Position numbers and translations under genes: made by a program | Part shown: positions 18,512 through 25,424 of the stretch, one piece after another | How the letters are laid out: each line of letters begins with the position of its first letter | Position numbering within the stretch: position 1 is the stretch's first letter | From: Candidatus Magasanikiibacteriota bacterium | Lineage (GTDB): Bacteria > Patescibacteriota > Patescibacteriia > Magasanikbacterales > GWA2-37-8 | DNA: 64,000 nt | Assembly (NCBI GenBank): GCA_963840935.1 | Contig: CAWJAS010000001.1 | Coordinates: 706,790 to 770,789, forward strand | Direction: 5' to 3' | The notes under the pieces: model-generated | Told to the model about the DNA's origin: nothing | The model's input: the letters and a program-made list of their open reading frames with translations, nothing else | The model's database searches: none

Positions 18512-19501
18512 ATGCCCGAACACCATCCCTCACCCGAAGCCCGTGACGCCTCCTCCTTTGAATACTGGCTTGATAATGAGGTAAAAAGACAATATATAGA
18601 GCAAGTGACCGCTCTTAACGAGATTGGTCTTTTGGATATCTTGCCCGAAGCCGAAGCCAAGGGCGTGGTTGGTATTGACGGCAAGGAATACCCGGTCCCA
18701 AGCTGGGCGGAGATTAAGGCCGAATTAGAGAAAGACAAAGAAAAATATGATACCAAAAGAAAACAAGGTTTCACCGAACTACAGCTCACCTCTTTTGCTG
18801 TCCCGCTTGAACGATTAACCCACACTTTAGAGAAACAAATCCTCGAACACCACAAACAAGGCAAACTCCTGGCTACTAAGGACAAAGACACTGACCCGGA
18901 TGAACCATTGGAATTAGACACCAACCAACCCCTCTATACATGGGACGGTTGGCTCGACCCGAACGCCCCACAGGGCGAAAGAGGAGCCGATGTCACTGGC
19001 AAGTGCGTTTACTACCCCGAATCCTTTGATAAAAAAAACCACAACGGCCAGACCAAACAACAAATACTCGACAAACAAAACAAGAATAACTCTCCCTTCC
19101 CCGGCTGGAATGTCATCCTCCTGGAAGCCAGCCCGAATATACCGAGAGAGGGCAAAGGCAAAACCCTGAACAACAGAAAACAGTTGGAAGCAGGCAAAGA
19201 ACCACAGCAATATCTCAAAACCCTACAAACCGACCCAACCTACCGGCATGAACAAGGCCTGACTATCGAGGACTGGACAACCCAAATGCTTACTCACCTG
19301 CACAAAACCAACCAGGTGATTGATGATTACCAAGGCAAAGGCAGTATCTGCTATTGTGCCGGCATCTTTAATCCCGCTTTCGGCGACCTGGGCCGCGCCT
19401 GCTGGCGCCGCGACTACCGCCAGGCCTACTTGATCTGGTACGTTCCTGGCTCTCGGTACGACTTCGACGGTCTCCGCTCCGCGGTGGGGATTGGTCCTTG
19501 A
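18512..19501 (+). CDS. DGR target (variable) protein A. The C-terminal about 37 codons are the variable region VR1.
   Basis: 329 aa. It is about 93% identical to the inverted paralog at 24435..25424 except for the C-terminal about 40 aa. Its 3' end matches the template repeat with substitutions only at TR adenines. Confidence 0.8.
   Translation: MPEHHPSPEARDASSFEYWLDNEVKRQYIEQVTALNEIGLLDILPEAEAKGVVGIDGKEYPVPSWAEIKAELEKDKEKYDTKRKQGFTELQLTSFAVPLERLTHTLEKQILEHHKQGKLLATKDKDTDPDEPLELDTNQPLYTWDGWLDPNAPQGERGADVTGKCVYYPESFDKKNHNGQTKQQILDKQNKNNSPFPGWNVILLEASPNIPREGKGKTLNNRKQLEAGKEPQQYLKTLQTDPTYRHEQGLTIEDWTTQMLTHLHKTNQVIDDYQGKGSICYCAGIFNPAFGDLGRACWRRDYRQAYLIWYVPGSRYDFDGLRSAVGIGP
19376..19486 (+). repeat. 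DGR variable repeat VR1
   Basis: A 111-nt match to the TR (24025..24135, opposite strand). About 17 mismatches, every one at a TR adenine. A GC-rich hairpin (cccgccagc-atgag-gctggcggg) lies 40 bp downstream at 19530-19557. Confidence 0.85.
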
Positions 19502-19571
19502 TCTTTGGTTTTTAATTCGTATTATAAAACCCGCCAGCATGAGGCTGGCGGGTTTTAATTTATTCTAATTT

Positions 19572-22500
19572 TTAAAATCTACCGTGCCAAACATTGCCAC
19601 GACCGCCGGAATTGTAGGTCATCTGCGAGTTCAAATTATCACCAGTGCTCAAATCATCATAAATTTTCGTTTCCGGATCGCCCGAACCGTCGTCCAGCGC
19701 GCGCAAGCGCGTCAAAGCAATCGGGTCATTAGTCAGATTATCCGGCATCTTCACCGAACCGCCATATTGGCTGGCGACGGCCAATGTTTTGACCGGTAAA
19801 CCAACAAACATTTTTTTAACTCCGTCTAAAATCGCCGCTACCTGCTCTTCGCTTTCAATACCCGGGGCGTAATAAATACCATTGAGCATCAATGCCGGTT
19901 TTTTATCTTCATCCATGGCGAAACTACCAAAAATAAAACCAAGGTTTTCACTGGATGTTTGTTTAGGCGTATCATACAATGCTTCACCTTGCGGTTTTTC
20001 CATGGAGATAACAAACGATAGCGGGTCGGCGTTAATTGAGGCGACCCAATATTTATTTTCCGTGCCATGTTGAACCACCATATTGTAATTGTTGCTCGAA
20101 AAACAGCAAATTTTGCTGTCGGCAAAGCGCACCATATTCATCAGTTGTTTGGTTTTGTCCATATAGCGCAAACCGACGCGTTGGTGCTTTTTTTCTTCAC
20201 CGCGCGACATCGGCCGAACATAAGTCAATGTGTCTTGAATAGTTTGAAACGGCCCCTGCAAATGACTCTCCAATTCCTGCACCAAAGCCACATCGCTTTC
20301 GCGCAATCGCTCTTCGCCCAGCACCTGCATGCTGATAAAAGTAAAAATGGCGCTCGGTGATTTTTCTGTCAAGGCGATAATTTCTTGTCCGATGGCTTCG
20401 ATTTTTTGGCTTCGCTCACTTGCTGACAAGCCGGCAAACCGGTCTTCCACTTTCATTTCCGACACCATCTGGCGCTCATTTTCCAATTTGGTCAGTTCGG
20501 CCTGAATATTCGCGATTTGTTTTTCTAAACGCGGTTTGTTTTTTTCATCAGCCCTCTCCAGCCCTTCGCGCAAATTGCCCAGGGCTTTCTTTTTGCGCGC
20601 AATTTCACTAACCACGGCTTTGGCTCGCTCATTTCCGCCCCGCAATGCCACCAGCAAATCCTTTTTCATCTTTTTTAAGTCCAGCCGTTTTGCGTCCAGG
20701 CGGGGAATCAATTCTTCTCCGCGGATAACAATTCGCTCGTCGTCAAACACGCTGTCCAAAGTGGCTTCGAGCAACATTTTTTCGCCCAATTTTTTCCAAT
20801 TATCTTTAAGGTCATTTTTGGCGCGGTCACGCAGGTCAGGCCATTCTCTATCAATTTCTGAAATTAACTGTCCGCGATCAGCAAAGGTCTGCGCCGATGA
20901 CATCTGCGTTAAATATTTTTCAGCCATTTCAGTTTTTTCTTGCTGTAAATATTCGCGGTAGAGAGGGAATATCAAAACTACGCCGAGTTCGCCCCGGCCA
21001 AGAGCTCGGCCGATTTCTGCATTGGCATTTTTTATGGCCGCATTTTCACTTACCTCAAAACTCACTTCCTGATAAGCCCGTTCATTTTTTTCACCAAAAT
21101 AATGACCGTCTTCCAGCCGAGAACAAACCTCAGTTGTTTCGGTTTTTTTTAATCCGCCCCGCTCGAGCGCCGAAGCAAACGCATGCATCGGCTCTTTGTG
21201 CGTGCGCAATTTGGCAATCAAATCCAGCATTTCTTTGAATTTGGCAAAACTGTAATTGTTTATTAAATTGAAACGGTCATCCCCACCGTGGAGTAAATAA
21301 TAAATCATGGCCGAGTGTTCGTCGCGATTAAGGGCGGTAATAAGCGAGCGCGAGTCGGTAAATTTTTCAAACTCGGTTTGCTTGGAACGGATATCGGCCA
21401 CGCGTTCGGAAATATTTTTTGTCCGCCAATTCTTATCTTCGTAAATAAATTCCAAAATTTCTTTGCTCGGCATCACGCCGAGCTCTCCGACCACGCTCTG
21501 CAAAACTTCCAGCCGTCGATTTTCACTTTCCATCGTCACCGGCCCTTGTTTGTTTTCCGGCAATTTTTTTCGTTCAGACCGATTGGCTACTCCGCGCTCT
21601 TTCCACCACTCGGCCACATCTTTTGGCAAATAACCTTTGTCGCATAATTTGCCGAATAAATACAAAGCCAGATGATTGTTTAGGCGGGGGTCGCCGGCCA
21701 GGCGCAAAATTATGTCATTGCCTCGCCAGTCGTCAAAATTATCCAAAAATACTTTTATAACGCGAGGCAAATGTCCGGCTTCCATTTTTTCCGCCATATC
21801 GCCTGGCTCGCTTTCGTCGCGAATCAAATCCAACAGCAATTGGCGCGTATCCTCGCCCAGCGTACCGACGGCTTCGCTCAATTGTTTGGTAATAGCGCGT
21901 TCGTCAAATTTTTTGCGCTCCACCGAGACCTTTAATTCTTGATGTAAACGATTACGCACCGCCCGTCGCTGATTTTCTTCCTCTGATTTCTTTTCCACCA
22001 CCGCTTGGTGAAGCAGGGGCGCCAAAGCCAAATCCAATTCGCGCGACACTGCCGGCCGTTTGTCGTCGGGGATCAATGCCAAAAAATCCGCCCGATCTTT
22101 TTCGGGTAAAACCAATGCATAGTCGGCCAAAAGCTGTTTGTCACTGGTCGCTTTTTTAGCGATTTCATTCATGTCAGGCAAAGTGGATTTTTCAACCAAT
22201 TTTTTTTGCAAACCCAAAAGCATGGCATCTGCCAGCAAACTGGACGGAGCAACTTTGGGCACATTTTTACAAGCCGAAAGATATTTATCAGCGGTCTCCA
22301 TTTCCACATCCGGATACACACCGGCAACCAAACTCATTTTTGCCGCCCGCGCCATGGATAAGGCAGCCAAATCGGGAAACAATTCAGCCGTGTCTTCGGC
22401 TTTGGATATTAAAATTTTATACTGTCCTGTTGCCTCTTCGGTAGATAAATCATCTTGACTTCCACCGCCGGCTTCACTGTTAACTTTGGCCAAATCAGCA

Positions 22501-22679
22501 TCATAGCGCTCGCGCATAGCGCCGGTTGACCATGGTTGTTGCAAATTCAGTGCGTTGATGCGTAATTCTTGAGACCGTTTCCGCATTTCCGCGCGAATAT
22601 GTATGTTGCCAAATTCGGCCACAGATTTATTGTTGGCTTCTATGAAGTCCGATGGGTGTTGTCCTTCGCCTTTGCGCAT
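19572..22679 (-). CDS. Large (1,035 aa) hypothetical protein encoded immediately downstream of, and overlapping, the DGR reverse transcriptase. It has no recognisable catalytic motif and no Walker A.
   Basis: Long uninterrupted ORF with island-like GC (about 50%). The N-terminal two-thirds are K/E/R/L-rich and predicted helical. The C-terminal about 230 aa are beta-rich. Its start overlaps the RT stop by 40 nt, consistent with an operon. Confidence 0.65.
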   Translation of the reverse strand: MRKGEGQHPSDFIEANNKSVAEFGNIHIRAEMRKRSQELRINALNLQQPWSTGAMRERYDADLAKVNSEAGGGSQDDLSTEEATGQYKILISKAEDTAELFPDLAALSMARAAKMSLVAGVYPDVEMETADKYLSACKNVPKVAPSSLLADAMLLGLQKKLVEKSTLPDMNEIAKKATSDKQLLADYALVLPEKDRADFLALIPDDKRPAVSRELDLALAPLLHQAVVEKKSEEENQRRAVRNRLHQELKVSVERKKFDERAITKQLSEAVGTLGEDTRQLLLDLIRDESEPGDMAEKMEAGHLPRVIKVFLDNFDDWRGNDIILRLAGDPRLNNHLALYLFGKLCDKGYLPKDVAEWWKERGVANRSERKKLPENKQGPVTMESENRRLEVLQSVVGELGVMPSKEILEFIYEDKNWRTKNISERVADIRSKQTEFEKFTDSRSLITALNRDEHSAMIYYLLHGGDDRFNLINNYSFAKFKEMLDLIAKLRTHKEPMHAFASALERGGLKKTETTEVCSRLEDGHYFGEKNERAYQEVSFEVSENAAIKNANAEIGRALGRGELGVVLIFPLYREYLQQEKTEMAEKYLTQMSSAQTFADRGQLISEIDREWPDLRDRAKNDLKDNWKKLGEKMLLEATLDSVFDDERIVIRGEELIPRLDAKRLDLKKMKKDLLVALRGGNERAKAVVSEIARKKKALGNLREGLERADEKNKPRLEKQIANIQAELTKLENERQMVSEMKVEDRFAGLSASERSQKIEAIGQEIIALTEKSPSAIFTFISMQVLGEERLRESDVALVQELESHLQGPFQTIQDTLTYVRPMSRGEEKKHQRVGLRYMDKTKQLMNMVRFADSKICCFSSNNYNMVVQHGTENKYWVASINADPLSFVISMEKPQGEALYDTPKQTSSENLGFIFGSFAMDEDKKPALMLNGIYYAPGIESEEQVAAILDGVKKMFVGLPVKTLAVASQYGGSVKMPDNLTNDPIALTRLRALDDGSGDPETKIYDDLSTGDNLNSQMTYNSGGRGNVWHGRF

Positions 22680-23647
22680 ATCTTGTTTTTGATTAACCAG
22701 TTATAATTTTTTAGATGTTTAAGATGGTGTTGCTTTGCCAGACCATAATAGCTGGGTACATTCCGCCGATTCAATCGAGATTTTGCTCTGCGCCAAATTT
22801 TAGCTTTGAGCCGTCGGCCAGTAGGATAGATTTCTACGCCCAAAAAATGGATACCCCGCCGCACAGGTAATAATATATCATTTTTACGGTTTATTTCAAG
22901 TCCAAGAGCATTTTTTAAGAATATCAACACTCTCTCTCGTAAATCTTTTGTTCCTATTCTTGTCTGAGTTATTATTATAAAATCATCGCCATAACGAAGA
23001 TAAAATTGCGGTTTTAAAATATGTTTTACAAATCGATCCAATTCATTGAGATAAATATTGGCGAAAATCTGGCTGGTCAAATTGCCGATAGGGATTCCCC
23101 GCTGGTCAGCTTCTCTTTTGTTTTGTCCAGAGTGAATATAACTGCCAATAATTATTTTAAGCAGGTTAGTTGTTTTGGTATCTTTAATACGGCGCGCCAT
23201 AATGCAAAGCAATACATCATGCTTTACGCTGTCAAAAAACTTGGTAATATCCGCCCGCCAGATAAAACTTTGAGAATATTTTTTAAACATTTTTTCCGTT
23301 CGCGCGATTGCCCCAATCAATCCTTTTTCTTTACGGCAAGACCAAGCGTCGTAAATAAAAGTTTTGTCGTAAATCTGCACAAGATATTCATAAACCAAAC
23401 GATGAAAAACCCGATCGCGAACACTGGCGACCGCGATATCACGGCGTTTGTTATCCGTCACCGTAAAATGCTGATACGGACCATGTATATATTGCCCGTT
23501 GTTCAAGTCCGTAAAAAGCCCCCATAAATTGTTTTCCAAAAAATATTGAAACAAATCAAGTTCATTTGTTCTTCTTTTTCCTCGGCGAAATTCAAACCAA
23601 CTTTGCCAAATATTATTTAAACTTAAATCAACGGGCGCTTTAAACAT
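22640..23647 (-). CDS. DGR reverse transcriptase
   Basis: RT motifs including the YxDD box (YLRYGDDFII) and the DGR-RT-characteristic QGIPIGNLTSQIFANIYLNELD segment. It is 335 aa. Confidence 0.9.
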   Translation of the reverse strand: MFKAPVDLSLNNIWQSWFEFRRGKRRTNELDLFQYFLENNLWGLFTDLNNGQYIHGPYQHFTVTDNKRRDIAVASVRDRVFHRLVYEYLVQIYDKTFIYDAWSCRKEKGLIGAIARTEKMFKKYSQSFIWRADITKFFDSVKHDVLLCIMARRIKDTKTTNLLKIIIGSYIHSGQNKREADQRGIPIGNLTSQIFANIYLNELDRFVKHILKPQFYLRYGDDFIIITQTRIGTKDLRERVLIFLKNALGLEINRKNDILLPVRRGIHFLGVEIYPTGRRLKAKIWRRAKSRLNRRNVPSYYGLAKQHHLKHLKNYNWLIKNKICAKAKDNTHRTS

Positions 23648-23675: not shown

Positions 23676-24020
23676 ATGCTAACATTACCCATAATCAATC
23701 AGGTTTACGAGGTGTATAAAATAATGGCGGACATAAATATCCACACAGAAAAACGCTGGCGTTATTCATTGGGCTCAAGTTTGGAAAACACAATTTTAGA
23801 TTGTATGTCCGAACTGATCATGGCCAAAAATGCGCCAAAACCAATTAAGGCCGGTCATCTTATTCAGGCCGGCGCGCATTTAGAAATATCAATCTTAAAA
23901 TTGCGACTATTTTTGGAGTTAAAAATTGCCAATGAAACAAAAGTTTTTCAGGCGCAAGCCAAAATCCGAGAGATTGGAAGAATGCTCGGTGGCTGGCTGA
24001 AGTCCTTGCAAAATACATAA
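23676..24020 (+). CDS. avd: DGR accessory variability determinant (Avd, four-helix-bundle protein)
   Basis: 114 aa. The C-terminal region IREIGRMLGGWLKSL and the central RYSLGSSLENTILDCMSELIMA pattern resemble Bordetella phage bAvd (LIAEVGRILGSWIARV). It is immediately adjacent to the TR. Confidence 0.7.
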   Translation: MLTLPIINQVYEVYKIMADINIHTEKRWRYSLGSSLENTILDCMSELIMAKNAPKPIKAGHLIQAGAHLEISILKLRLFLELKIANETKVFQAQAKIREIGRMLGGWLKSLQNT

Positions 24021-24024
24021 ACCT

Positions 24025-24135
24025 CACCGCGGAGCGGAGACCGTTGTTGTCGTTCCGATTGCCAGGATCGTTCCTGTTCAAGTTGGCCTGGCGGTTGTCG
24101 CGGTTCCAGTAGGCGTTGCCCAGGTTGCCGAAAGC
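24025..24135 (-). repeat. DGR template repeat (TR). The sense (adenine-bearing) strand is the minus strand, and it is rich in AAC (Asn) codons.
   Basis: The minus-strand reading GCTTTCGGCAACCTGGGCAACGCCTACTGGAACCGCGACAACCGCCAGGCCAACTTGAACAGGAACGATCCTGGCAATCGGAACGACAACAACGGTCTCCGCTCCGCGGTG aligns to both VRs. All differences fall at its adenines. Confidence 0.9.
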
Positions 24136-24434: not shown

Positions 24435-25424
24435 TCAAGCACCCACCCCCACCGCGGAGCGGAGACCGCTGTCGTCGTACCGACTGCCAGGAACGCTCCT
24501 GACCAAGAAGGCCCGGCGGCCGTCGCGGTCCCAGCAGGCGTAGCCCAGGTTGCCGAAAGCGGGATTAAAGGTGCCGGCGAGGAAACAGGCACTGCCTTTG
24601 CCTTGGTAATTATCAATCACCTGGTTGGTTTTGTGCAGGTGAGTAAGCATTTGGGTGGTCCAATCCTCGATGGTCAGGCCTTGTTCATGCCGGTAGGTTG
24701 GGTCGGTTTGTAGGGTTTTGAGATATTGCTGTGGTTCTTTGCCTGCTTCCAACTGTTTTCTGTTGTTCAGGGTTTTGCCTTTGCCCTCTCTCGGTATATT
24801 CGGGCTGGCTTCCAAGAGGATGACATTCCAGCCGGGGAAGGGCGAGTTGTTTTTGTTTTGTTTGTCGATTATTTGTTGTTTGGTCTGGCCGTTATGGTTT
24901 TTCTCGTCAAAGGATTCGGGGTAGTAAACGCACTTGCCGGTAACATCGGCCCCTCTCTCGCCCTGTGGGGCGTTCGGGTCGAGCCATTCGTCCAAGGTGT
25001 AAAGGGGTTGGTTGGTGTCTAATTCCAATGGTTCGTCCGGGTCAGTGTCTTTGTCCTTGGTAGCCAGGAGTTTACCTTGTCTGTGGTGTTCGAGGATTTG
25101 TTTCTCTAAAGTGTGGGTTAATCGTTCAAGCGGGACAGCAAAAGAGGTGAGCTGTAGTTCGGTGAAACCTTGTTTTCTTTTGGTATCATATTTTTCTTTG
25201 TCTTTCTCTAATTCGGCCTTAATCTCCGTCCAGCTTGGGACCGGGTATTCTTTGCCGTCAATGCCAACCACGCCCTTGGCTTCGGCTTCGGGTAAGATAT
25301 CCAAAAGACCAATCTCGTTAAGAGCGGTCACTTGCTCTATGTATTGTCTTTTTACCTCATTCTCCAGCCAGTATTCAAAGGAGGAGGCGTCACGGGCTTC
25401 GGGTGAGGGGCGGTGTTCGGGCAT
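24435..25424 (-). CDS. DGR target (variable) protein B, an inverted paralog of protein A. Its C-terminus is VR2.
   Basis: 329 aa, near-identical to protein A until the last about 40 residues. Confidence 0.8.
   Translation of the reverse strand: MPEHRPSPEARDASSFEYWLENEVKRQYIEQVTALNEIGLLDILPEAEAKGVVGIDGKEYPVPSWTEIKAELEKDKEKYDTKRKQGFTELQLTSFAVPLERLTHTLEKQILEHHRQGKLLATKDKDTDPDEPLELDTNQPLYTLDEWLDPNAPQGERGADVTGKCVYYPESFDEKNHNGQTKQQIIDKQNKNNSPFPGWNVILLEASPNIPREGKGKTLNNRKQLEAGKEPQQYLKTLQTDPTYRHEQGLTIEDWTTQMLTHLHKTNQVIDNYQGKGSACFLAGTFNPAFGNLGYACWDRDGRRAFLVRSVPGSRYDDSGLRSAVGVGA
24450..24560 (-). repeat. DGR variable repeat VR2
   Basis: A 111-nt match to the TR with about 15 mismatches, all at TR adenines and at positions different from VR1. 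A downstream hairpin gcccgcc-ccaa-ggcgggt lies at 24347-24368. Confidence 0.85.

Follow-up and report, generated by a model that had tools for sequence, protein, structure and literature searches.

Which role does a protein of 1,035 amino acids play when its gene lies directly behind the reverse transcriptase (RT) of a DGR? This question is raised by a gene, here called BIG, in a 64,000-nucleotide stretch of a Candidatus Magasanikiibacteriota contig (the window). Its 3.1-kb open reading frame (ORF) has an ATG start and had been predicted to begin 40 nt before the RT stop on the same strand, which is exactly what we found: both genes lie on the minus strand and overlap by 40 nt (Table 1). BIG and target gene A are convergent and have a terminator-like hairpin in common, as had also been proposed; the hairpin carries a 14-bp stem between the two stops, with A and T runs on either side. 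The elevated GC content of the region was seen as well, but it is only modest (0.44-0.48 at 19-23 kb vs 0.34-0.44 in the flanks). No signal peptide or transmembrane segment was detected in BIG or in the variable protein encoded by the target genes, and all domains of BIG are acidic (pI 5.4-6.7).

The DGR cassette around BIG

The element that surrounds BIG is a genuine DGR, because it combines an RT with the IGNLTSQ motif, a bAvd gene and a template repeat (TR) that matches two VRs with adenine-specific mismatches. The RT translation holds the sequence IPIGNLTSQ, in agreement with the [ILV]GxxxSQ pattern of DGR-type enzymes. When the TR was aligned with the VRs, nearly all mismatches fell on TR adenines, and in the target genes the VR is located at the 3' end, as is expected of an adenine-differing TR/VR pair of a DGR. 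The cassette is ordered target, TR, divergent bAvd, RT, BIG, target, and the orientation of bAvd is identical in all related loci. A hidden VR within BIG was considered and rejected: the sole repeat that touches the gene is a 35-nt chance match of 71%.

Table 1. Features of the DGR cassette in the window and predicted domains of BIG
Feature	Position	Strand	Evidence or remark
Target gene A, 329 aa, CLec fold	18512..19501	+	VR 19376-19492; convergent with BIG
Bidirectional terminator-like hairpin	19525..19557		common to BIG and target A
BIG gene	19572..22679	-	ORF and translation; 56 full-length homologues; AlphaFold2 model
BIG, predicted C-terminal GNAT-fold domain, residues 826-1035	19575..20204	-	
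BIG, predicted central helical solenoid and long helices, residues ~361-825	20205..21599	-	
BIG, predicted N-terminal helical domain, residues ~21-360	21600..22619	-	DGR-cassette-linked module
DGR reverse transcriptase (RT)	22640..23647	-	Pfam RVT_1 4e-18; IGNLTSQ motif
bAvd accessory protein	23676..24020	+	Pfam PF22296 3.3e-11; divergent from RT
Template repeat (TR)	24019..24135	-	repeat families D1, I2; adenine-specific differences from both VRs
Target gene B, 329 aa	24435..25424	-	VR 24447-24560

BIG is a conserved fourth gene of a Patescibacteria-specific DGR group

More than 70 full-length homologues of BIG were found at 38-85% identity, all of them in Patescibacteria; one database search yielded 56 full-length homologues, and genome and metagenome collections provided 45 more loci. 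The alignment contains more than 100 invariant columns, and the ORF extends far beyond chance, so that the gene is real. The original prediction had named two findings that would speak against it. One of these, an assembly fusion, was rejected, since independent samples yielded collinear full-length homologues on more than 70 contigs; the other, a confident hit to a common unrelated family, did not occur, as no such family was matched.

Among the distinct loci with visible upstream sequence, BIG lies directly after a DGR RT in approximately 27 of 33, and in 27 of the 28 with an upstream RT, BIG begins 4-40 nt before the RT ends or follows it at a distance of at most 57 nt. A layout in which target genes flank Avd(-), RT(+) and BIG(+) is seen repeatedly, at 38-85% identity, and the flanking genes belong to one conserved family of ~330-aa targets with a C-type-lectin (CLec) fold. 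The genes outside the cassette, which are Elp3 and SHMT in the window, are replaced elsewhere by HSP20 and VanW, by enolase, or by SIS and aminotransferase genes. Because these outer neighbours vary between loci, BIG belongs to the cassette. It is a conserved, intrinsic fourth gene of one Patescibacteria-specific DGR group and keeps its in-cassette position across divergent DGRs, as is characteristic of an accessory gene. The proposed search for large RT-adjacent ORFs in other loci has thus been answered by a BIG gene that follows the RT while the outer genes differ, and this synteny bears out the idea of an unrecognised DGR-linked accessory factor or effector outside the canonical DGR description. 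BIG is previously undescribed, with a possible earlier mention in the main CPR DGR survey (Paul et al. 2017). With regard to a location in defence islands or mobile elements, the wider surroundings comprise housekeeping genes in the window and in loci L002, L004 and L005, recombinase, TraG, relaxase and HsdM genes in L001, and SNF2-methyltransferase and RecQ genes in L017.

BIG is not found only together with an RT. Where an adjacent RT is missing, it always stands beside one to seven paralogues of the target family. Three such loci (L012, L017 and L020) contain no RT within 10 kb, and in L017 BIG follows one target gene and precedes two more, all on the same strand and separated by 85, 22 and 29 nt. 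In L001/L013, seven target paralogues stand in tandem; the first shares 8 nt with BIG, and the RT is 8 kb away. Linkage to the RT was predicted correctly, but the most constant partner of BIG is the target-protein family and not the RT, because BIG persists in loci without an adjacent RT. In one genome BIG is accompanied by six or more paralogues of the target, of which three are solitary; this fits one hub with many adaptors. BIG is intact in all 15 loci in which the RT is out of frame.

Most of the related RTs are out of frame and have a (GA)n tract in their interior.

Predicted domain anatomy of BIG

BIG gave no match to Pfam, NCBIfam, PHROGs, PADLOC or PDB sequences (phmmer), and no Pfam or NCBIfam match to the known DGR accessory families Avd, HRDC and MSL at E<=1 except noise. 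Profile searches of the PDB with the full-length alignment (A1) and with the C-domain alignment (A4) produced nothing significant; a Pol lambda helix-hairpin-helix match at residues 477-523 (E 0.2-1.3) was rejected as noise, and so was an aldolase match (E 0.018). Relatives of BIG were absent from an IMG/VR scan. An adaptor domain common to BIG and its targets was likewise rejected, as hhalign of the target alignment (A3) against A1 gave a probability of 0.7%, and the charge of the protein lends no support to a nucleic-acid-binding role.

BIG had been called unannotatable, which is true of the library searches but not of the whole protein, whose C-terminus is predicted to adopt a GNAT fold. 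The AlphaFold2 model (pLDDT 82, pTM 0.71) is helical at residues 17-820 and alpha/beta at residues 830-1035; all structural inferences on BIG derive from this predicted model, in which pLDDT drops below 50 around C859-S862. The helical N-terminal two-thirds anticipated from the sequence were recovered, the supposedly beta-rich C-terminus is better described as an alpha/beta GNAT fold, and the expected lack of Walker motifs is consistent with the absence of a Walker A motif from BIG. In the model, BIG consists of an N-terminal helical domain, a solenoid and a divergent GNAT-fold C-domain; invariant residues of the latter are D854, C859, D885, P886, G914, F915, Y936, R993, D1008 and D1009.

The predicted C-domain follows the GNAT order of elements (b1-a1-a2-b2-b3-b4-a3-b5-a4-b6). 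A regular-expression search of residues 826-1035 revealed no acetyl-CoA motif A (Q/R-x-x-G-x-G/A), and in 35 members of the domain the b4-a3 loop is short and differs from one to the next. Only one of these 35 reached a Pfam GNAT model (Acetyltransf_3, E=0.09) and none passed the threshold; the PDB profile search with the C-domain found no GNAT either. Since motif A and a Pfam GNAT match are both absent, the domain may be non-catalytic or use a different donor. Compared with GNAT N-acyltransferases such as NatD/NAA40, NAA80, PaiA, AAC(6') and the PAT GNAT domain, and with GNAT toxins such as AtaT, the C-domain of BIG differs in these two respects, in the lack of an NCBIfam match, in an unusual conserved signature (RFADSxxCCF, DPLSF, GFxFG, LNG[IV]Y, RLRA, YDD) and in its fusion to a solenoid of ~800 aa.

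Both ends of BIG recur in other proteins. The N-terminal ~340 aa are present at 25-33% identity in two other large protein families (B and C), and all four of the examined members of these families are encoded directly after a DGR RT. The GNAT-like C-domain closes 115 other diverse proteins. Some homologues of BIG, for example TPR-bearing proteins of 1,400-1,630 aa, occur without DGRs, and no RT or target gene was found near three distant homologues that have the C-domain and the central region (L026-L028). Pfam searches of 14 large proteins that have only the C-domain and 10 that have only the N-domain gave no informative domains, PDB phmmer searches with families B and C found nothing, and a C-domain profile retrieved only short unnamed fragments from a set of 5.8 billion proteins. 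New domain families may be represented by both the N-terminal domain, which is modular and would serve for docking, and the C-terminal one, which is widespread.

Possible functions of BIG and their biological meaning

We propose that BIG partners the DGR-diversified variable proteins as a hub or effector, a reading to which we assign a probability of about 0.4 and whose mechanism we infer. The small, cytoplasmic CLec-fold variable proteins would act as interchangeable specificity subunits that owe their diversity either to the RT or to paralogue arrays, and they would dock on BIG, probably via its N-terminal domain. As the hub or effector that all of them share, BIG could use its acyltransferase-like C-domain to act on the ligand of the variable protein, or that domain could be controlled by the ligand. 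The RT would supply diversity, and the function of BIG itself would be independent of the RT. In favour of this reading stand the conservation of BIG within the cassette, its persistence beside targets where no RT is adjacent, its intactness where the RT is out of frame, the recurrence of both its ends in other proteins, the genome with several target paralogues, and the lack of signal peptides and transmembrane segments in both proteins. Against it speak the absence of a common adaptor domain, of motif A and of a Pfam GNAT match. The very tight coupling of RT and BIG and the place of all three N-domain families directly behind an RT would be just as compatible with a role directed at the RT, and BIG loci that seem to be devoid of an RT could use one that is encoded elsewhere in the genome.

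Such an RT-directed role is the main rival, which we regard as possible, if doubtful: BIG could be an accessory or regulatory factor of retrohoming that attaches through its N-domain to the RT, to Avd or to the TR RNA. In this role it would promote or regulate the synthesis of cDNA or its integration, for instance if it acylated a host repair factor or some component of the cassette. The RT stop overlaps the BIG start in nearly all loci, the three families that lie immediately 3' of DGR RTs have only the N-domain in common, and Avd, HRDC, MSL and CH1 (PMC5758913) set a precedent for clade-specific DGR accessory genes. Yet BIG stays intact beside targets that lack an RT within 10 kb and beside out-of-frame RTs, its acidic domains give no hint of nucleic-acid binding, the Pol lambda match that is its sole nucleic-acid-related one is not significant, and the C-domain and central region occur together in three distant loci with neither RT nor target nearby.

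It is decidedly unlikely, in our view, that BIG modifies the variable proteins themselves, by acylation or as a chaperone or assembly scaffold, instead of acting on their ligands. The operons common to BIG and its targets with their translational coupling (the 8-nt overlap in L001), the predicted GNAT fold and the large solenoid, a typical feature of scaffolds, would suit such a function, which from sequence data alone is inseparable from the hub or effector role; solitary target paralogues far from BIG, however, argue against it. That BIG is an unrelated passenger beside the DGR, or an artefact of assembly or annotation, is highly improbable. It has no recognisable function, and its TPR-bearing homologues manage without DGRs, but the passenger reading is effectively refuted by the synteny statistics: the RT-BIG overlap is maintained across ~30 loci at 38-85% identity amid variable outer flanks, quite apart from the collinear full-length ORFs and the invariant columns.

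Known systems offer partial parallels to the hub or effector partner that we propose. Like the DGR accessory genes Avd/bAvd, HRDC, MSL and CH1 described by Wu et al. 2018 (PMC5758913), BIG is clade-specific, conserved within its cassette and tightly coupled to the RT. Unlike them, it measures 1,035 aa instead of roughly 100-300 aa, resembles none of them in sequence, is present in addition to bAvd, and persists without an adjacent RT but always beside the target family. DGR-diversified CLec sensors are also known from conflict systems composed of sensor, adaptor and effector (Kaur et al. 2020, PMC7159879; Dore et al. 2024, PMC10907252). The BIG cassette resembles these in the genetic linkage of a hypervariable CLec module to a separate large protein with an enzyme-like domain, and in a modular architecture with swappable C-terminal parts. 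It differs from them in the absence of a STAND or MoxR NTPase (neither BIG nor the targets match NTPase models of Pfam), of a Walker A motif, of an adaptor domain common with the targets, and of a peptidase, TIR or nuclease effector. The 329-aa targets, and not BIG, are comparable to Mtd, TvpA and TaqVP with their CLec fold and C-terminal VR, but they are small, cytoplasmic-looking, multi-copy proteins without a Pfam family match.

A more far-reaching version, which we consider unlikely, sees in BIG the effector arm of an antibody-like system for targeting in the cytoplasm of ultra-small bacteria. CLec proteins, either DGR-diversified or encoded by paralogues, would capture ligands of any kind inside the cell, for instance proteins of phage or host origin, and bring them to a scaffold-borne, non-canonical GNAT-type transferase, by which they would then be modified. 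A slipped-strand (GA)n on/off switch within the RT gene might gate diversification, and in sister cassettes other effector halves would be joined to the same docking domain at the N-terminus.

CPR/Patescibacteria are strongly enriched in DGRs whose targets have no membrane anchor or recognisable domain (Roux et al. 2021, PMC8144416). Surveys of Pfam co-occurrence (e.g. PMC10053308) are blind to BIG, because it has no Pfam domain. A conserved cassette partner with a predicted enzyme-like domain provides a concrete handle on the role of DGRs in these bacteria, and BIG predicts a two-component system in which a variable binder would be combined with a constant effector or hub.

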